Both the position numbers and the translations under genes were made by a program. From Patescibacteria group bacterium (GTDB taxonomy: Bacteria > Patescibacteriota > WWE3 > JAMCXX01): DNA of 64,000 nt. The stretch spans positions 21,712 to 85,711 of the forward strand of contig JAMCXX010000003.1 of NCBI GenBank assembly GCA_023474425.1. The letters are read 5' to 3'. Positions 11,431 through 59,730 of the stretch are shown here, in pieces; position 1 is the stretch's first letter; the number at the start of each line of letters is the position of its first letter. The notes under the pieces were generated by a model. It was not told the DNA's origin and searched no databases. It was given only the letters and a program-made list of their open reading frames with translations.

Positions 11431-11462
11431 GTACCCTCCTTTATGAGATTTGGATTTTTGTA

Positions 11463-11545
11463 AACGGTGGCAGGCAGCGGATCCGGAAAAATTGTTGTTG
11501 GTTCCGCCTCCTCCGGATCCGATTTCTGCCGCCGTTTTTTTTGTG
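11463..11545 (-). promoter_or_regulatory. long imperfect hairpin in the 5' leader of the small ORF
   Basis: Arms AAACGGTGGCAGGCAGCGGATCCGGA / TCCGGATCCGATTTCTGCCGCCGTTT around a 24-nt loop. T8 run on the plus side. Confidence 0.4.
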
Positions 11546-11681
11546 TGCTGTCTCTATCTTTCCTGCAAGTTTATCCGGGTCCACTTTTCAACAATGTAAC
11601 CCTTCCCTTAATCCGCCTTCGCTGAAGCTTCGGCGGGATTGATGGTTGCTAGATTCGGTCGAACGCTCATCAAGCAACCAT

Positions 11682-15497: not shown

Positions 15498-15587
15498 GCC
15501 GATGTGGTGGAACTGGTAGACACGCACGACTCAAAATCGTGTGAGCCTTAAAAGCTCGTGTCGGTTCGACTCCGACCATCGGCACCA
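15498..15587 (+). tRNA. tRNA-Leu (anticodon CAA), class II, CCA encoded
   Basis: Folded by hand. Acceptor GCCGATG/CATCGGC, D stem GTG/CAC, anticodon stem CACGA/TCGTG with loop CTCAAAA. Long variable arm GAGC..GCTC. T arm GTCGG-TTCGACT-CCGAC. Ends ACCA. Confidence 0.9.
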
Positions 15588-15692
15588 CCGAGTCATCTAG
15601 TTAGACTCGATGGCGAGGTGAGCCAAGTCTGACTTGGCCAGGTTTTTATATAAGTAGATGAACGAAAAGTATAGAGAAACCATTTTCAGATC

Positions 15693-15762
15693 GGAATTCG
15701 TCATCCTGGCCGAGTCCAGGATCGATGCTGGAGCCGCCCAGCATGACGACCCCGGGAATTCC
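15693..15762. repeat. three-hairpin palindromic element (CGTCAT...ATGACG type)
   Basis: Outer stem TCGTCATCCTGG / CCAGCATGACGA. Inner hairpins CCTGG..CCAGG and GCTGG..CCAGC. Flanked by GGAATTC / GGGAATTCC. Confidence 0.65.
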
Positions 15763-15830
15763 AATCTGTGTGTGTTATGTGACACTACGTTTACATGTTG
15801 TTTAGTTAAGTGAGACACCTAGAAATCTTT

Positions 15831-15888: not shown

Positions 15889-15964
15889 GTGCCTGTAGCT
15901 CAGGGGATAGAGCGTGCGCCTCCGGAGCGCAAGGTCGGGAGTTCGAATCTCCCCAGGCATACCA
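15889..15964 (+). tRNA. tRNA-Arg (anticodon CCG), CCA encoded
   Basis: Acceptor GTGCCTG/CAGGCAT (G1-U72). D arm GCTC-AGGGGATA-GAGC. Anticodon stem TGCGC/GCGCA with loop CTCCGGA. T arm GGGAG-TTCGAAT-CTCCC. Ends ACCA. Confidence 0.9.
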
Positions 15965-19173: not shown

Positions 19174-19260
19174 GTTTTTGAGCTGTCCCAAAACGTGCGC
19201 CGATCGGCTACTGTTTTGGGAACTCGATGATATTTAAGTGATATTTAAATCTAACCCAAA

Positions 19261-19352
19261 TTTCCAAATCTGCTTCCCGTCATCCTGAAGTGTCCGTCAT
19301 GAAGGATCTAGATCCTTCGCTTCGCTCAGGATGACGCGGTGATAATTGGAAA
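19261..19352. repeat. three-hairpin palindromic element (CGTCATCCTGA...TCAGGATGACG)
   Basis: Outer inverted repeat 19278-19288 / 19326-19336. Inner perfect palindrome GAAGGATCTAGATCCTTC. Flanks TTTCCAAAT / AATTGGAAA. Confidence 0.7.
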
Positions 19353-20155: not shown

Positions 20156-20380
20156 GATCTCTCCTTTCTTTGTCCCAAAATGTGAGCCGATCGGCCATCA
20201 TTTTGGGAACTTTGAATGGAATTTGGATAGACGATGAAAAGTGCTTTTGTTTTTTTTGTGATGCTTTGAGCACCACCTCCTTTATTATTTTAGTTTATCG
20301 ACTTCCCTTAAAGAAACTTTTTTAAATTTCCTTGAGGGAAGCACGAACCTTGAATTGTTCCAGAGTTCGTGCTTGGGTTC

Positions 20381-21345: not shown

Positions 21346-23001
21346 GTGGAAGGTATGGTTAAAGGGCTAAAAGAGTTTAAAAAATTTGCCCAAAAATATT
21401 ACGCTTATATCTACCGGATTTCACCGGTCACGGCCACTTACTTAGGCATTCATAAGTATGACCAACTTTTAGGCGATTATTCCGTTTCGGCCATCAGGAA
21501 CGAAGCTAAGAAATTTAGCCAATTTAAAAAGGAGTTGGGGCGGCTTAAGCCTTCAATTAAGAATTTTGAACTTAAAGACCAAACCGACTATCGGTTGGTG
21601 GCGGCGGACATCGAACTTAATTTAATCTCTTTAAATAAGGTTAAAGACTGGCAAAAGAATCCCAATCTTTACGTGGAAATGCCGCTTATGGGCGTCTTTT
21701 TAATTGTTTCCCACGACGGACTTAGACAGCAGGAAAAATTAAAGTCGGTTATTGCCCGTCTTTCGCAATACCCTAAGGTTCTAAAGCAGGGGCAAAATAA
21801 CCTTAAAAAGACGCCGCGGATTTTTGTGGAAATTGCTCTGGAAACCGTAATCGGCGCCAAGGCTTTTGTTAAAAATCTACCCGGGGAGCTTGACGCGCAA
21901 GAAAAACTTGAGGAAAACAAGAAAAAAATTCTCGCAAGTCAGGTTGAGCGCGTCATCGCTTCCTTAAACCGGTTTGAGGAGTTTCTGCGCCGTGATTTAC
22001 TTAAGCGTTCGACCCGCCAATTTGCCTTAGGCACCCGGCTCTTTGAAAAAAGGTTAAAAACGGAACACTTTTTGGACCTTTCGGCCCGGGAGCTTTACGA
22101 GTTTGGCAAGCAGGAGTTCGCCCGTATTCAAAAAGAGTTGACGCGGACGGCTAAAAGCTTGGATAAAAAGAAAAGCTGGCAGGAGTTGGTTGACGAGTAT
22201 AAAAACGAGGTGCCCGTGCCGGGTGAGCTTTTGAGTCTTTACCGGAAAGAGGTTTTGCGGCTGGTTGAATTTTTAAAAGATAAAGATTTAGTTTCCTTTC
22301 CCAAAGAGAAATGCCGGGTTTCCTTAACCCCGGATTTTGAAAGACCCACCGTGCCATACGCCGCCTACATGCCGCCCCCGCCTTTTGACAAAAATCAGAC
22401 CGGCAATTTTTGGGTGACGCCTATTGATACGAAATCGTCGGCCGAGGGCCAGCGCGAACAGCTGCGCGAACACTCTTTGTTGAGTTTTATGATTACCACT
22501 CTGCACGAGTCTTATCCCGGACATCACCTTCAATTTGCTCTATCCAACCGCAACCCGTCGTTTGTGCGCAAGCACGGGCAGTCGAGCCTTCTTTGCGAGG
22601 GCTGGGCTCTCTACTGCGAGCAAATGATGGGCGAGGTGGGGTACTATAAGGACCCGCGGTCAAAACTTTTTGCGCTTAAAGACGAGCTTTGGCGGGCGGC
22701 CCGGGTAATGATTGACGCCGGTCTCCACTGTTTTAATATGAGTGTTAATGAGGCGGTCAAAATGCTTGTGGACGAAGTAAAGCTGGCCCCTTCGCAAGCC
22801 GAAGCCGAAGTCAAACGTTACACCTTAAGCCCCACCCAGCCCATGAGTTATTTGGTGGGCAAGTTTTTAATTCTTAAGATGAGGAGGGAAGCCCAAAGGA
22901 AGTGGGGGCCAAAATTTAGCCTTAAGAAATTTCACGACTTGTTCTTGGCCGGTGGCACCATACCACAACCTTTAATTGAGAGGGAATTATTTCACGATTA
23001 G
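21346..23001 (+). CDS. DUF885-family protein (metallopeptidase-like)
   Basis: LHESYPGHHLQ motif, size 551 aa and helical N-terminal region typical of DUF885. Confidence 0.8.
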   Translation: MEGMVKGLKEFKKFAQKYYAYIYRISPVTATYLGIHKYDQLLGDYSVSAIRNEAKKFSQFKKELGRLKPSIKNFELKDQTDYRLVAADIELNLISLNKVKDWQKNPNLYVEMPLMGVFLIVSHDGLRQQEKLKSVIARLSQYPKVLKQGQNNLKKTPRIFVEIALETVIGAKAFVKNLPGELDAQEKLEENKKKILASQVERVIASLNRFEEFLRRDLLKRSTRQFALGTRLFEKRLKTEHFLDLSARELYEFGKQEFARIQKELTRTAKSLDKKKSWQELVDEYKNEVPVPGELLSLYRKEVLRLVEFLKDKDLVSFPKEKCRVSLTPDFERPTVPYAAYMPPPPFDKNQTGNFWVTPIDTKSSAEGQREQLREHSLLSFMITTLHESYPGHHLQFALSNRNPSFVRKHGQSSLLCEGWALYCEQMMGEVGYYKDPRSKLFALKDELWRAARVMIDAGLHCFNMSVNEAVKMLVDEVKLAPSQAEAEVKRYTLSPTQPMSYLVGKFLILKMRREAQRKWGPKFSLKKFHDLFLAGGTIPQPLIERELFHD

Positions 23002-23009
23002 TTTTCAAT

Positions 23010-23972
23010 ATGAATTTAGGGTTTATTATTTTGTTGATTCAGAAAGTACTACTAACACTCTCCTTTCTCCTGTATCTTTTTTGGACCTTCCGGCTTGGAG
23101 TTAAGCAGGGATTTAACCGCACCAAAATTTTGGATTTGGCTATTTTTGCCCCGGCCGCGGGGGTTTTAGCCTTCAAATTTGCTTCGTCAATCCGGCTTGA
23201 CTCGGAGAGTTTTTTCTTTTTGGGATTTCTGGCTTTTGTCTATTTTTGGGGACGCCGCGAAACCTGGTCGGCCCAGAGACTGGGTGATATTTTCTCGGAA
23301 AGCTTAACTTTGGCCGCCGTTTTCTTTCCTTATTTTCAAAGCCCTCTGTTTAACCTTTTTGCCTTGGTTATTTTTTATTTAATCCGCAAAGTTGGGCAGA
23401 TTAAAGTTAAGTCCAGTTTTATTTTTTTAAGCTTCCTGGTCTTATTCGGCCCATTTTTTGGTTTATTGACTTACGTTGAGCATCATCGCTGGCTGACGCC
23501 GAATTTAGTCTTGGCGGTTGTTTTGTTTTTGTGGGGTGTGTTAGGATTAAGAAATAAAGTTTACCGTGAGTCTATGGAACTGCTTAAATTTACCTTACCC
23601 AAAGAGTTGTTAAAGGGTCTCGAAGAAAAACTGCTTAAGAAACAGGCCGACCTGGAGGCGGAAGAACGAGCCCTCAAATTGGAGGGCAAGTCCTTGGACG
23701 CCGAAAAGACAGAAGATGTGGAAGAGGAGGACCGGGCTTTAGTGGCAGAGGAAGAGGACCGCACCGGTTCCATGCTGGAATTTATTCGCGCCCGCAAGAA
23801 TGAAGTAGTTTTGGCCCTGCGTAAAATTAAAGACGGCAACTACGGGCTTTGCGAAAGCTGCCGCAAACCCATTGACAAGGCCCGTCTCCTAGCCTATCCG
23901 GAAGCCAGATTTTGCTTGGAGCATGAGCCTAAAGAAGAGGAGAAAGAGAAACAAAAGGAAAACAGTGTCTAA
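23010..23972 (+). CDS. polytopic membrane protein fused to a coiled coil and a DksA/TraR-type C4 zinc finger
   Basis: About 6 TM helices (residues 1-185). E/K-rich coiled segment. C-terminal GNYGLCESCRKPIDKARLLAYPEARFCLEH. Confidence 0.65.
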   Translation: MNLGFIILLIQKVLLTLSFLLYLFWTFRLGVKQGFNRTKILDLAIFAPAAGVLAFKFASSIRLDSESFFFLGFLAFVYFWGRRETWSAQRLGDIFSESLTLAAVFFPYFQSPLFNLFALVIFYLIRKVGQIKVKSSFIFLSFLVLFGPFFGLLTYVEHHRWLTPNLVLAVVLFLWGVLGLRNKVYRESMELLKFTLPKELLKGLEEKLLKKQADLEAEERALKLEGKSLDAEKTEDVEEEDRALVAEEEDRTGSMLEFIRARKNEVVLALRKIKDGNYGLCESCRKPIDKARLLAYPEARFCLEHEPKEEEKEKQKENSV

Positions 23973-24483
23973 ATTTGTCCGTGCCTCTATACCCTTTTTA
24001 CTGTTATTATTGTCCGACCAGCTCATTAAATATTTTGTCATCTCGCAGGACTTAAATTACTACAAAAACTACGGTTTTCTTTTCGGGCTTGTAAATTTTA
24101 AAAGTCCCGTAATTTCTGTTTTGTTTATTAGCGCTATTTTAATTATTGTCATGCTGAACTTGTTTCAGCATCTAAACAAATGTCATTCCGACCCCAGAGC
24201 CGGAATCCGGAACCTCGACGAGCCTGAATGCCGGGTCTCGGCCCGGCATGACACTTTGCCCGTGGGGTTACATTTATTTTTGGCCGGATCCGTAAGTAAC
24301 TTTCTTGATCGCATGACGCGGGGCTACGTGGCTGACTATTTAGATTGGAAGACGGTTATGCCATTTTGGCCGGAAAACTTCGTGAGGTTTTTTAACTTGG
24401 CGGATGTGTTTATTATTTTGGGGTTTCTTTTTGCCGTTTTGAATCTCCGCCGAAGCGGCGGTCCCGTCCGGCGTAATCCTTAA
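23923..24483 (+). CDS. lspA: lipoprotein signal peptidase (signal peptidase II) carrying an in-frame repeat-derived insert
   Basis: Motifs NYGFLFG, AGSVSNFLDRMTRGYVADYL and FFNLADVFIILG. Exact start uncertain because it overlaps the previous gene. Confidence 0.8.
   Translation: MSLKKRRKRNKRKTVSKFVRASIPFLLLLLSDQLIKYFVISQDLNYYKNYGFLFGLVNFKSPVISVLFISAILIIVMLNLFQHLNKCHSDPRAGIRNLDEPECRVSARHDTLPVGLHLFLAGSVSNFLDRMTRGYVADYLDWKTVMPFWPENFVRFFNLADVFIILGFLFAVLNLRRSGGPVRRNP
24181..24253. repeat. three-hairpin palindromic element inside lspA
   Basis: Outer TGTCAT / ATGACA. Inner hairpins ATTCCG..CGGAAT and ATGCCGGG..CCCGGCAT. Translated as CHSDPRAGIRNLDEPECRVSARHD. Confidence 0.7.
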
Positions 24484-27438: not shown

Positions 27439-27550
27439 TTGGTTTTCCTCACCGGATTTGACAGCAACATTGTCTTGTGGTATAAAGTACACAGTCTCTC
27501 TCCTTTCTTCGCCCCTCGGCCAAAATTAGCCGGGGGGTTTTTGGTTGCAG

Positions 27551-40834: not shown

Positions 40835-42940
<2,106 letters not shown>

Positions 42941-48954: not shown

Positions 48955-49011
48955 ACGGATTAAGGATTCAGTAGTAAAGAATTAAGTTATGTATTCTCTA
49001 TTTCAAATCCA

Positions 49012-49104
49012 GTCATTGCGAATATACGGCTGAAGCAATCTCCCGAGAATGCGGGGCTGACACGAGGTCAGAGATCGCCACGGGTCGTGACACCTCGCGA
49101 TGAC
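49012..49104. repeat. palindromic element (GTCATTGCG...CGCGATGAC) upstream of and overlapping the pilD start
   Basis: Outer inverted repeat 49012-49020 / 49096-49104. Inner hairpins ATTGC..GCAAT and CTGAC..GTCAG. Confidence 0.6.
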
Positions 49105-49930
49105 AAGACACATTAGTCATGTTTTTATGTACCACTTTTTTTCAAATTTCGAGCTTACAAGCTTATTAACTTATTGCTTAGTTCTTGCCTTCGGTGCCTG
49201 TGTCGGCTCTTTTTTAAACGTGGTGATTGACCGTTTTCCGGCTGGCCAATCAATTCTTGGACGCTCTCGGTCGGATTGTTGCGCGCGAACTTTGGGTGTT
49301 TGGGATTTAATTCCCATCTTAAGTTTTATGTTTTCGAGAGGAAGGTGCCGATATTGTAACCATCATCTTTCTTTTTATTATCCCTTAGTTGAGGCATCAG
49401 CGGCGATTTTGACTTTGATTTTCTATCTTATTTTTCCTCTCCCTCACTTTGTTTTTTATGCCGTAAACGGCTACTTTTTAATTATCTATTTTTTTATGGA
49501 CCTTAAGTACGGTTTGGTTTCTTCGGCGGTTTTCTCTTTAAATATTTTTTTTACCGTTTCTTGCCTACTTTACCTTTTATACCGTCGCGAGCTCAGCCTT
49601 GCCCAAATGGAGCTAACGGCGGTTTCCGGCTTTATTCTCGCCTTGTTTTTCTTATTCTTAATCTTAATGACGCGGGGTCGGGGCATGGGTTTGGGCGATA
49701 TTCTTTTGGTTTTGGCGCTTTCCCTTTTTCTGGGTTTTCCTCTTTCTCTGGTTATGATTTTCTTAAGTTTCTTTTTAGGTGGTCTAGCGTCAATCTTTTT
49801 ACTTCTACTTGGTAAAAAGAAAATTGGCCAGACGGTTCCCTTTGGTCCGTTTCTTACCCTCTCGTCTCTGCTTGCTTTGTTTTGGGGTAATGTTTTAATT
49901 AACTTTTATCTGCGTTATCTTTTAGGGTAG
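49100..49930 (+). CDS. pilD: prepilin peptidase (A24 family)
   Basis: GACVGSFLNVVIDRFP. Cys pairs DCC...CRYC. Catalytic Asp regions GRGMGLGD and PFGPFL. Start may be the ATG at 49127 instead of 49100. Confidence 0.85.
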   Translation: MTRHISHVFMYHFFSNFELTSLLTYCLVLAFGACVGSFLNVVIDRFPAGQSILGRSRSDCCARTLGVWDLIPILSFMFSRGRCRYCNHHLSFYYPLVEASAAILTLIFYLIFPLPHFVFYAVNGYFLIIYFFMDLKYGLVSSAVFSLNIFFTVSCLLYLLYRRELSLAQMELTAVSGFILALFFLFLILMTRGRGMGLGDILLVLALSLFLGFPLSLVMIFLSFFLGGLASIFLLLLGKKKIGQTVPFGPFLTLSSLLALFWGNVLINFYLRYLLG

Positions 49931-50452: not shown

Positions 50453-50938
50453 ATGACGAAGTCTAACCTTCAACTTTCAACTTTCAACTTTCAACTTATT
50501 CGTGGTTTCACCCTTATAGAGATGCTCGTGACCATCGCCATTATTGTAATTGTGTCTGGGGCACTGATTGTAGGTATTAATCCCACTAAAAGACTTCAAG
50601 ACGCGCAGGACGCCCGGGCCAAGCAAGATGTGCGGGCCATTGCGTCGGCGGTGGAATCTTGTATGTCTTATGTAAACCCCGCGACCAATACGGCCAACTC
50701 TAATGACCCGAATACAAACTGCAGTCCCGGTTCTAAGCTGGCGCCGGGAAGCACCACCCCAGGGTCCCCCTTCACTAGGGCGGCGCCGCCGAGCAATATT
50801 ATTTTCTTAACCAGCATTAGTAATACCAATGTTTGTTTTTACGAGCAGGGTAGCACCAATCCGGCCAACTACTGGGTTTATCAGACTAATACTGGATTGG
50901 TTCAAAGCCAATCAACCGTTCCAAACTCCTGTCCCTAG
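50453..50938 (+). CDS. type IV pilin-like protein with a long repeat-encoded leader
   Basis: MTKSNLQLSTFNFQLIRG/FTLIEMLVTIAIIVIV. Confidence 0.8.
   Translation: MTKSNLQLSTFNFQLIRGFTLIEMLVTIAIIVIVSGALIVGINPTKRLQDAQDARAKQDVRAIASAVESCMSYVNPATNTANSNDPNTNCSPGSKLAPGSTTPGSPFTRAAPPSNIIFLTSISNTNVCFYEQGSTNPANYWVYQTNTGLVQSQSTVPNSCP
50467..50497. repeat. heptamer array CCTTCAA CTTTCAA CTTTCAA CTTTCAA CTT (TCAA sense) inside the pilin leader
   Basis: Three perfect plus one variant unit, translated as NLQLSTFNFQL. Confidence 0.9.
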
Positions 50939-51990: not shown

Positions 51991-52350
51991 GTGAGTGAAC
52001 GGGGTAAAGACATCCTCGAAAGGTCAAAGCGTTTTGCCATTAAGATAATTAAATTGTCGGGACACTTGCCAAGAACTCCCGCCGGGTTTGTGATTGCCGA
52101 ACAACTTATCGGATGTGGGACTTCAGTTGGTGCGAACACCGTTGAAGCACAAGATGCCTCATCGAGAAAAGACTTTATTAATAAGATGAGTATTGCCCTG
52201 AGAGAGTGCCGAGAGTCTAAGTATTGGTTGAGTATTATTCAGTAGTCAGGTTTATTGAGAGGAGACGAATTAATGTTATTGATTGAGGAAAGTAATCAAC
52301 TTTGCGCTATTTATTCTGCAATTGTAAAAAATGCGAGAAATCATCAATAG
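51991..52350 (+). pseudogene. four-helix-bundle protein (23S rRNA IVS protein / Avd-like family) interrupted by an in-frame TAG
   Basis: RSKRFAIKIIKL...GTSVGANTVEAQDASSRKDFINKMSIALRECRESKYWLSII-Q-TAG(52243-52245)-SGLLRGDELMLLIEESNQLCAIYSAIVKNA. Both parts are in the same frame. Confidence 0.6.
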
Positions 52351-58523: not shown

Positions 58524-59027
58524 GTGTTAGTAAGTTTTATGACTGCCTATTTTCAGCCTAATATACCCGTACGTCCCAATTTAACTTTCCTAAAGGATCT
58601 CCTGTTAACTTTGCTTTTAATAGTTTCCGCCTTTGTTTTGGGTTTCGCCGTTGACTACAAATATACATTGGTTACCAAGGGGCTTGGTTCGGCCGGAAAT
58701 TTGGTTGGTGGCCCTGTTGTTTCCATCAGCAAAATGGTAGTCGGCAAGGCTATAAAAGTGGAGGGAAAATCCATGACGGTAGAAGCCGGCGGGCAAAAAA
58801 TTAATGTTCAAATGGCTTTAGAAGTTAACATTACGGCCCAGACGTTGCCATCCTCAACGCCCGGTTCCGAAGGAACGCCCAGCGCAGCCGTTGCGCCCAA
58901 GACTTTCCGCGACTTTGGCATTATTCCAGTAGGTAATCAAGTTACCGTTTTTATGGAGATGCAGCCCAACGGGGATTTTGTAGCCAAGTCCGTTTTCCTA
59001 ATACTTCCTAGTGCCAAAGCAAAATAG
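58524..59027 (+). CDS. hypothetical membrane-anchored beta-rich protein
   Basis: 167 aa with a TM anchor. G-K-x-I-K-V-E-G type beta module similar in style to the 11873 and 59041 ORFs. Confidence 0.5.
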   Translation: MLVSFMTAYFQPNIPVRPNLTFLKDLLLTLLLIVSAFVLGFAVDYKYTLVTKGLGSAGNLVGGPVVSISKMVVGKAIKVEGKSMTVEAGGQKINVQMALEVNITAQTLPSSTPGSEGTPSAAVAPKTFRDFGIIPVGNQVTVFMEMQPNGDFVAKSVFLILPSAKAK

Positions 59028-59040
59028 CTTGGGACAGAGT

Positions 59041-59730
59041 ATGAGAGTTTTTAAGTTAATAATTTCGCTCGCCTTTATCTTTTTGGCGCTCAGTTTAGTT
59101 GGTATTCTTAGTTTTAAATTTCCAGCGACGTTTAACAAGACCGCGGTTAAGAGTTCCGGTGTACAGAACTTTTCCGGACGGGTTTTAAGAATTTCGCCGA
59201 GCGAAGAAAATTATATTCTGGATCTTATGGATTTGGAGGCTACATCGGCGGCCAGCAGAATTACCAAGTCTTTTAGCGTCAAAAAGGAAAGTTCCGGTAC
59301 CGCAGTATCGCAGGCGACCGACTCCGCCTCAAAAGATAGTTTTACAACTTCGTTTGGGAATGTCCGTATTGGAGATATACTCAAAGTCACTTATTCCGGC
59401 GAGGCCTCCCCTTATAAAATTTTATCCCTAGAAAATACATCGGCAAAAGAAGATATTCCGCCGCAGCCGGCTTTCTTGCACGGTATTGTGAGTTCTATTT
59501 CCGGAACCACCATGACTATGTACTCTACCGAAAGTGGGACTTACACTTTAAGGGTTGACGGCACTGTTTTAATGGGGCCAATGTACGAAAAAGTAGGAGG
59601 GGTTGAACGGCCCGGCAAACTTAAACCGGTTAAGGATTTTTCCAGTCTTAAAGTTTGGCAGGAGATTTCGGTTTTTTACAGCCGGAATGACGGGGAGGTC
59701 ATAATTCCGGACAGCGTTCTGACTTTCTAA
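59041..59730 (+). CDS. hypothetical membrane-anchored beta-rich protein
   Basis: ATG at 59041 after the previous stop. TM anchor. Repeated GxV..IS / IGDILKV modules. Confidence 0.5.
   Translation: MRVFKLIISLAFIFLALSLVGILSFKFPATFNKTAVKSSGVQNFSGRVLRISPSEENYILDLMDLEATSAASRITKSFSVKKESSGTAVSQATDSASKDSFTTSFGNVRIGDILKVTYSGEASPYKILSLENTSAKEDIPPQPAFLHGIVSSISGTTMTMYSTESGTYTLRVDGTVLMGPMYEKVGGVERPGKLKPVKDFSSLKVWQEISVFYSRNDGEVIIPDSVLTF

Follow-up and report, generated by a model that had tools for sequence, protein, structure and literature searches.

A 64 kb stretch of the genome of a Patescibacteria group bacterium of the WWE3 lineage (contig JAMCXX010000003.1, positions 21,712 to 85,711) contains a cluster of short hairpin-forming DNA units which is read in frame within an intact gene for signal peptidase II, lspA. 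The whole 64 kb stretch is referred to here as the window, and all element coordinates are window positions. The units are probably selfish repeats that act at the level of DNA and are tolerated by the gene; they would belong to a family resembling the Neisseria Transformation Sequence (NTS) and the Ssn-related motifs (SRM), upheld by a hairpin-recognising nuclease or transposase together with recombination among copies. The ancestor of the clade acquired units in lspA where the gene codes for the turn from transmembrane (TM) helix 2 to TM helix 3, and the reading frame stayed open after this acquisition. What makes the case noteworthy is that units have turned over at a single site among the orthologues, and that the same conserved DNA is read in two frames; no new kind of system is revealed.

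Hairpin units inside lspA

The original prediction described a palindromic 73-nt element with three hairpins at 24181-24253, translated inside signal peptidase II. The palindrome is present as described: the segment reads TGTCATTCCGACCCCAGAGCCGGAATCCGGAACCTCGACGAGCCTGAATGCCGGGTCTCGGCCCGGCATGACA, with TGTCAT...ATGACA at its ends and two inner hairpins (ATTCCG/CGGAAT and ATGCCGGG/CCCGGCAT), and it encodes the peptide CHSDPRAGIRNLDEPECRVSARHD. It is a GC-rich imperfect palindrome with arms of 29 nt each (24178-24206 and 24228-24256) that are 76% complementary, and its GC content is 56-66% compared with 27-33% in lspA just upstream. The in-frame residence also holds, as the ORF list gives an intact lspA open reading frame (ORF) at 23965-24483 on the plus strand which matches Pfam Peptidase_A8 (PF01252) with E = 3e-17.

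How is the element built? Hairpins B and C of the predicted element stand, but a single 73-nt unit does not: the cluster consists of three units of roughly 30 nt, starting at 24147. The layout of a unit is YGTC, a palindrome opening and closing with AT, and then a C. Unit A (24147-24177, plus strand, found by the unit scan described below) reads TGTC ATGCTGAA cttgt TTCAGCAT CTAAAC, with the hairpin through the C at 24148-24171, and encodes VMLNLFQHLNK, which forms the cytoplasmic end of TM helix 2 in the structural model described below. Unit B (24181-24212, plus strand) reads TGTC ATTCCG accccagagc CGGAAT CCGGAA, and unit C (24222-24253, minus strand) reads TGTC ATGCCGGG ccgaga CCCGGCAT TCAGGC on its own strand. 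The orientation of the block is A(+), B(+), C(-), where B and C form a tail-to-tail dimer and their two tails make up the central spacer (24207-24227, CCGGAACCTCGACGAGCCTGA). Because unit A adjoins the dimer and pairs outermost with unit C, the block is longer than predicted. The whole block A+B+C occupies 24147-24253 and is bounded by this outermost inverted repeat, TGTCATGC (24147-24154, in unit A) and GCATGACA (24246-24253, in unit C). From GTCAT to ATGAC (24148-24252) it spans 105 nt, which is 35 codons without a stop, and folds at -36.1 kcal/mol; the inserted block is probably of about this size (105 nt, 35 codons) and not 73 nt.

Folding of the DNA at 24145-24256 gives z = -3.27, none of 200 shuffles being equally stable, and folding of the RNA at 24175-24260 gives z = -2.45 for the plus strand and -2.8 for the minus strand. 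These z-scores are only moderate, and in a GC-corrected sliding-window fold scan the lspA insert is not outstanding at z < -3, its stability alone being unremarkable.

The likely start of lspA is GTG 23965; it overlaps the stop of the upstream gene for a dksA-type zinc-finger membrane protein, and an in-frame ATG is present at 23923. PMC6952399 lists 14 conserved LspA residues, and the product has a matching residue at the mapped position of each, the catalytic D124 and D147 among them; residues D18, K22, N35, G108, N112, D124, N144 and D147 are invariant in a 29-sequence LspA alignment. An AlphaFold model of the protein (pLDDT 86, pTM 0.78) matches 6ryp/6ryo/5dir in Foldseek with E values of 8e-6 to 5e-4, and the sequence matches to LspA structures in the PDB (9emz/5dir/6ryo) start right behind the insert. 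The continuity of the ORF suggests that the insert is translated.

Where in the enzyme would the extra residues lie? LspA crosses the membrane with four helices, its catalytic dyad lies toward the outer surface and its C terminus is cytoplasmic, and monoderm bacteria can do without lspA (PMC6952399). The enzyme, called essential in the original prediction, need not be so in this organism. In the AlphaFold model, helix 2 comprises residues 48-73, including those of unit A, and helix 3 residues 98-119; residues 74-97, encoded by units B and C, are coil with a pLDDT of about 60. On the basis of the published four-helix topology (PMC6952399) and the model, we infer that the turn between helices 2 and 3 faces the cytoplasm, well away from the active site. 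The insert, for which the original prediction had considered both a cytoplasmic and an external position, would then be a cytoplasmic loop. Among 107 LspA homologues taken from an exhaustive profile search, the distance from the N-G-F-G to the N-x-x-D-R motif is 32-53 residues in 79 and 58-82 in the other 28; in the window it is 66. As expected for an insertion, the segment is missing when distant LspA proteins are aligned, and the nearest homologues outside the clade (P0008, P0009, P0004 and P0006) are also without it.

A dispersed family of units in the window

That the lspA element is a member of a repeat family is supported by the enrichment of its units in the window, and the copy-number test covers these 64 kb. 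The unit scan searched for GTC followed by a perfect palindrome starting with AT (stem of at least 5 bp, loop of 3-20 nt), and the expectation was taken from 200 simulated sequences generated by a first-order Markov model with the dinucleotide transition frequencies of the window. Ten such units were observed against 1.25 expected. When a C was required behind the palindrome, eight were left against 0.25 expected, the simulation maximum being 2. A relaxed version of the unit scan gave 6 against 0.24, and the motif GTCATYCYG occurs 8 times against 1.2. The scanned units have perfect stems of 5-8 bp and loops of 4-18 nt, with individual folds of -3 to -18 kcal/mol, and nine of the ten sit at just four places: 15700-15747 (two), 19279-19335 (two), 49012-49104 (two) and lspA (three).

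The three intergenic places (about 15700, 19279 and 49012), which had been cited as copies of the lspA element, do share its build, since each has one unit per strand with the tails meeting at the centre. The two units of the dimer at 15699-15748 read CGTC ATCCTGG ccgagt CCAGGAT C and CGTC ATGCTGG gcggct CCAGCAT C. The dimer at 19278-19336 has CGTC ATCCT...AGGAT CTAG on each strand around the common centre GATCTAGATC. A third dimer, at 49011-49105, lies just 5' of the prepilin peptidase gene, and its minus-strand unit contains GTCATCGCGAGGTGTCACGACCCGTGGCGATCT. The window has an ORF coverage of 92%, as in a dense genome, and its gene content and the nature of its homologues suggest a small-genome, Patescibacteria-like bacterium. 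The 15700 dimer is flanked by tRNA genes (15498-15584 and 15889-15961), and an ORF called across it (15597-15818) is probably spurious. The first ATG of the prepilin peptidase (PilD-like) ORF, 49100-49930, is that of the terminal ATGAC (49100-49104) of the 49012-49104 dimer; another in-frame ATG follows nine codons on, and either may be the true start.

A possible further unit, with one stem mismatch, is found on the minus strand at 59665-59691 (CGTC ATTCCGG ctgtaaaaaa CCGAAAT C), at the 3' end of ORF 59011-59730. GTCAT motifs stand head-to-head in this region (59665-59710, CCGGAATGAC GGGGAG GTCATAATTCCGG), with the second GTCAT at 59699, and it may be another copy within a coding region.

Several unit subfamilies coexist in the window. 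Hairpin C has no copy elsewhere in the window, either exact or with up to three mismatches, and simple sequence searches fail for these units because the subfamilies differ too much. In the subfamily of the 15700 dimer, four homologous units show CG, GC and UA pairs at one stem position. A stem position with three pair types was matched by 41 of 500 shuffles, and the units had been preselected for perfect stems; the covariation may therefore be taken as suggestive only. The element matches no family in Rfam, where the top matches were miRNA-like noise with E about 0.5, and a search of the published literature for in-frame palindromic repeats in the Candidate Phyla Radiation returned nothing specific.

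Turnover of units among orthologues

Two close LspA relatives, with 57% and 48% identity, were found in a large protein collection and a third, syntenic one (46% identity) on a JGI metagenome contig. Two Logan contigs, from the assemblies of SRR10267473 and SRR10252151, are 100% identical to the window, and an LspA-alignment scan of GTDB species-representative contigs gave distant LspAs only, the lineage being absent there. All three orthologues (loci L001, L002 and L009) have GTCAT units at the same place in lspA. In L001 these are the same units as in the window: A has decayed, with the core hairpin and the CTAAAC tail kept and GTCAT lost, B is present, and C has the canonical CCAGAC tail. 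The tails of L001 (CCAGA...TCTGG) pair with each other across the central spacer. L002 has other subfamilies at the site, ATTCT...AGAAT and ATCCT-TCCGGC...GCCGGA-AGGAT, the latter with GTC mutated to GCC. L009 has a shorter dimer of 63 nt, which starts at the same codon (ATT GTC ATx) as unit A of the window. The left unit of this dimer agrees with the window's minus-strand unit at 49074-49104 in 33 consecutive nt (95% identity over 41 nt), and the two positions are non-orthologous; orthologous genes of the window and L009 are 70-73% identical. A dimer of the 15700 subfamily is also present in L009 at 164-235, upstream of a DUF885 gene, where the window has none. A scan of viral contigs for the 32-nt unit common to the window and L009 gave no match.

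Judged from these comparisons, the units form a dispersed family whose sequence is held far tighter than the genome background, and the units at the lspA site were evidently exchanged or re-inserted while the clade diverged. The insertion itself is old, with subsequent unit turnover, being common to orthologues at 46-57% protein identity. The motif-to-motif length in the three closest orthologues is 68-69 residues; their loops are of the same length and are themselves encoded by palindromic DNA of the same family, and not by ordinary coding sequence as the original prediction had envisaged for the case that the loop was not an insert.

The same loop is occupied in more distant relatives. L011 and L012 have GTCAT-type dimers there in the same codon phase (TGT CAT...AAT GAC), with unit sequences unrelated to those of the window. 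An open reading frame runs through the in-frame units in L001, L002, L009, L011 and L012 as well. The LspA loop of L017 is filled by a 150-nt AT-rich palindrome with a CCTGCC...GGCAGG core, and that of L018 by another repeat type. The simplest reading is that dense genomes are peppered with palindromic repeats, and that the survivors are found only in permissive loops.

Palindromes also stand in frame in other genes. L009 carries, at 572-733, a 162-nt GC-rich in-frame segment (-63.9 kcal/mol) in its DUF885 gene, which the window orthologue (21346-23001) does not have. This segment contains a minus-strand GTCAT-type unit ending GGAATCCAGA, and its part coding for 'GGVEKF' also occurs in the LspA loops of P0007 and P0012. 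In the window, ORF 40835-42910 (minus strand) has an in-frame palindrome at 41040-41150, with AGTTGAAAGTTGAGAG arms and a CCTGCCTTGCCGGCAGGCAGG hairpin (-38.6 kcal/mol); it belongs to a family other than that of the lspA units, the same one as the filler of the L017 LspA loop.

Conservation of the DNA and not of the peptide

Is it the loop peptide or the DNA that is being kept? Identity between the window and L001 in the flanks of lspA is 53% for protein, 60% for nucleotides and 44% for third codon positions, and the insert DNA is 77% identical (87 of 113 columns); over hairpin C plus GAC, 24 of 25 nt agree. From the stretch CCGGAATCCRGAAC, the reading frame of the window yields AGIRN and that of L001 yields PESRT. 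The frames differ because the loop of unit B differs in length, and the frame is restored before unit C. Reading the same DNA in two frames argues against selection on the loop peptide and speaks for either a nucleic-acid constraint or a homogenisation of the copies. At the level of sequence, then, what is maintained is the DNA (hairpin stems, GTCAT ends and tails) and not the peptide. The original prediction had left room for the element being either tolerated or exploited by lspA; with a peptide that is not conserved, and different frames in the window and L001, exploitation gains no support.

Likeness to known repeats

The sequence GTCATTCC, used as a text query, pointed to the published NTS of Neisseria. 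The NTS is CGTCATTCCCGCGMAVGCGGGAATCYRG, an extension of the dRS3 repeat, and SRMs flank, and are cut by, the small GIY-YIG single-stranded DNA (ssDNA) nucleases Ssn; the base reported to matter most for SsnA binding is the C after the palindrome, and in N. meningitidis just 2% of the NTS fall within genes (PMC11893778). The lspA units have much of this anatomy: (C/T)GTCAT at the foot of a 5-8 bp palindrome starting with AT, a C right behind the palindrome and an ATCYRG tail, in units that are oriented and multi-copy, with variants coexisting. The HGTCWY motif of SRMs is found in A, B and C, which open with TGTCAT, and in the intergenic units, which open with C/T/AGTCAT. The units also are hairpin-forming inverted repeats within the 20-50 nt range of SRMs. 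The RNCYNB tail (ATCYRG in the NTS) appears as ATC TAA in unit A, as ATC CGG in unit B and as ATC CAG in units B and C of L001, and the ATT CAG tail of unit C in the window is one change from the ATCYRG type. Unit B, with its 5' GTCAT and its GGAATCCGG tail, fits the NTS consensus CGTCATTCC...GGAATCYRG. Viral contigs L013-L016, fetched with a pattern built from unit B, match the SRM regular expression HGTCWYN(0-2)YYVSBRHN(0-5)WNVSBRGN(0-2)RNCYNB, for example with TGTCATTCCGGCGAAAGCCGGAATCCAG, and this strict SRM differs from unit B of L001 solely in the inner stem and the loop.

Several results weigh against an origin of the lspA block by insertion of repeats of this family. The same regular expression has no match in the window or in L001-L012, because the loops of the units are longer and their stems different. 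The lspA copy is in frame within a gene, and coding residence is atypical for NTS. Motif regular expressions, tblastn and Pfam scans of 33 window ORFs revealed no gene for a GIY-YIG protein, an IS200-type/Y1 transposase or another candidate partner in the window or at the related loci. Duplications of a target site are absent beside all four window elements, and close relatives showed no truly empty site that would define the boundaries and the mechanism of insertion. Moreover, deleting all 35 codons would leave a helix 2 of about 14 residues, which is too short, implying that unit A may have replaced ancestral coding sequence or may supply part of the helix. A further difference from NTS is that the window units are mostly tail-to-tail dimers. 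With the regular expression failing and no partner gene seen, the units are not to be filed as confirmed SRMs, and the family assignment should be understood as 'works like and looks like' NTS/SRM, not as proven membership.

Other known kinds of repeat share some features with the lspA block. Rickettsia palindromic elements (RPEs) are palindromic repeats of about 100 nt that lie in frame in protein genes, with a tolerated peptide. The lspA block is likewise in frame with the ORF intact, and the constraint appears to act on DNA. It differs in its host lineage, in being modular (30-nt units) and in that the same site is refilled in relatives; this likeness is one of description. Repetitive extragenic palindromes (REPs) have a typical 5' GTAG/GTGG and are extragenic by definition, and REPINs are mobilised by RAYT transposases. 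Like REPINs and BIMEs, the units come as inverted pairs of short imperfect palindromes that can form two local hairpins or one long one and cluster in mosaics, and an inverted doublet is present at 15699-15748, at 19278-19336, at 49011-49105 and, as B/C, in lspA. However, their 5' signature is GTCA(T) and not GTAG/GTGG, and no RAYT gene was seen in the window. As in MITEs (inverted-repeat transposable elements of miniature size), such as the Correia elements of Neisseria, the block is small and non-autonomous, has terminal inverted repeats (TGTCATGC/GCATGACA) and belongs to a group of several copies; unlike in MITEs, a duplicated target site and a parent insertion sequence sharing these ends are both missing, and the subfamilies are wholly unlike in internal sequence. 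The closest kinds are therefore NTS/SRM in the anatomy of the unit, REPINs in arrangement and RPEs in coding residence.

Why are the units kept in lspA?

Most likely the element is a tolerated passenger in lspA and not a functional part of the enzyme. The extra 24-35 residues would form a disordered loop on the cytoplasmic face, and the enzyme would tolerate them because this loop lies opposite the active site. A protein acting in trans and encoded elsewhere in the genome would recognise the single-stranded hairpins, the likeliest candidates being a GIY-YIG nuclease of the Ssn type and a transposase of the REP type, and this recognition would account for the conservation of the unit DNA. Recombination or conversion among copies may add to the conservation, and would also explain why different units are present at the same site in related genomes.

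Could lspA instead be making use of the hairpins? The structure of the mRNA or the loop at the helix 2-3 turn might cause translation to pause while helix 2 inserts, serving LspA biogenesis or regulation. Alternatively, the DNA hairpins might mark the gene for an Ssn-type ssDNA nuclease, thereby limiting gene replacement by transforming DNA. It speaks for such a use that GTCAT-type dimers fill the same loop in the window clade, L009, L011 and L012, that unrelated palindromes fill it in L017 and L018, and that the insert DNA is better conserved than the synonymous sites of its flanks; the type IV pilus cluster of the window, with a weak ComP-like match in a minor pilin, fits a competence lifestyle. 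However, many relatives are without the insert, and the occupants of the loop have neither sequence nor length (21-35 codons and more) nor GC content in common. Neither is the peptide frame conserved, and the fold is only moderately stable against shuffles. The presence of in-frame palindromes in the L009 DUF885 gene and in window ORF 40835-42910 points to a general tolerance filter rather than an LspA-specific role, and we consider exploitation unlikely. A bolder proposal is that the helix 2-3 turn is a landing pad, where units are inserted or swapped by a site- or structure-directed process (BIME/NIME-like) and kept for a hairpin-specific ssDNA nuclease which controls recombination at the locus in a competent, ultra-small bacterium. 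We give this little credence; if true, these would be the first Ssn-type repeats working from within a coding sequence.

The origin of the units can also be questioned. They might be REP-like and mobilised as REPINs by a RAYT/IS200-type Y1 transposase, with a merely convergent resemblance to NTS. REPINs and BIMEs are built likewise, from short palindromes in inverted doublets able to fold into a single long hairpin, and several subfamilies in one genome would suit such an origin, which is nonetheless improbable: the conserved 5' end is GTCAT and not the GTAG/GTGG typical of REPs, neither the window nor the related loci showed a Y1 transposase gene, and the ATCYRG tail and the C behind the palindrome match NTS specifically. 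Very improbable is a function of the minus-strand hairpins as a transcription stop for the convergent operon of uppS and polyprenyl synthase. The genes uppS and lspA do converge, overlapping by 71 nt at their 3' ends (24413-24483), and there is one terminator-like minus-strand site, 24206-24185 followed by GACATTTGTT. This single site compares with 1.1 expected in shuffles, which is chance level; its T-run is poor, it lies about 200 nt past the uppS stop, and the L009 element has no terminator feature. A role of the hairpins as intrinsic terminator or promoter was rejected as being at chance level. Finally, the loop might be ancestral and specific to the lineage, with incidental palindromy and no origin from a repeat element. 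The equal motif-to-motif length in the three closest orthologues and the lack of an empty site in a close relative would fit, but this is hardly credible when units are about 30-fold above chance, two genomes share 33 identical nt of one unit at places that are not orthologous, GC content rises abruptly at the insert, and L009 has a different, shorter element at the same codon.

NTS/SRM-like repeats have recently been tied to a new class of ssDNA nucleases and are almost entirely intergenic (PMC11893778). If the units in lspA are tolerated repeats of this kind, such hairpin repeats are also found in a poorly sampled lineage, and in frame within a conserved membrane enzyme. They would provide a clean natural example of conservation at the DNA level overriding the peptide, with the same nucleotides in two frames in two species. 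One LspA loop would be a repeated sink for palindromic DNA, which matters for annotation, alignments and protein-family models of small-genome bacteria, and for permissive insertion sites.

Other repeats and conserved stretches in the window

A large intergenic palindrome at 11451-11550 (AAACGGTGGCAGGCAGCGGATCCGGA...TCCGGATCCGATTTCTGCCGCCGTTT, -47.9 kcal/mol) is followed by a T-run and represents another repeat or terminator class. Two copies of yet another palindromic motif (TCCCAAAAYGTG.GCCGATCGG...), at 19186-19221 and 20173-20208, flank the region of 19.2-20.2 kb, which also contains the 19279 dimer and ORFs without Pfam matches. The window and L009 agree at 96% over 50 nt of intergenic sequence at 27492-27541 (L009 8604-8653), compared with about 72% for the neighbouring genes; this stretch lies 5' of a gene for a DUF87/TrwB-type ATPase and includes a GC-rich hairpin and then a U-run.

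The pilin cluster has features of its own. The heptamer CAACTTT is repeated four times in tandem at 50469-50498, in the 5' end of a pilin-like gene (50453-50938) whose product has an unusually long leader, MTKSNLQLSTFNFQLIRG, ahead of the G|FTLIE processing site. Repeats of AGTTGAAAGTTGA, to which the heptamer is related, occur at 41063 and 51394. A gene for a '23S rRNA intervening sequence protein' (51991-52242; PF05635, 7e-17) lies in the same cluster, far from any rRNA.

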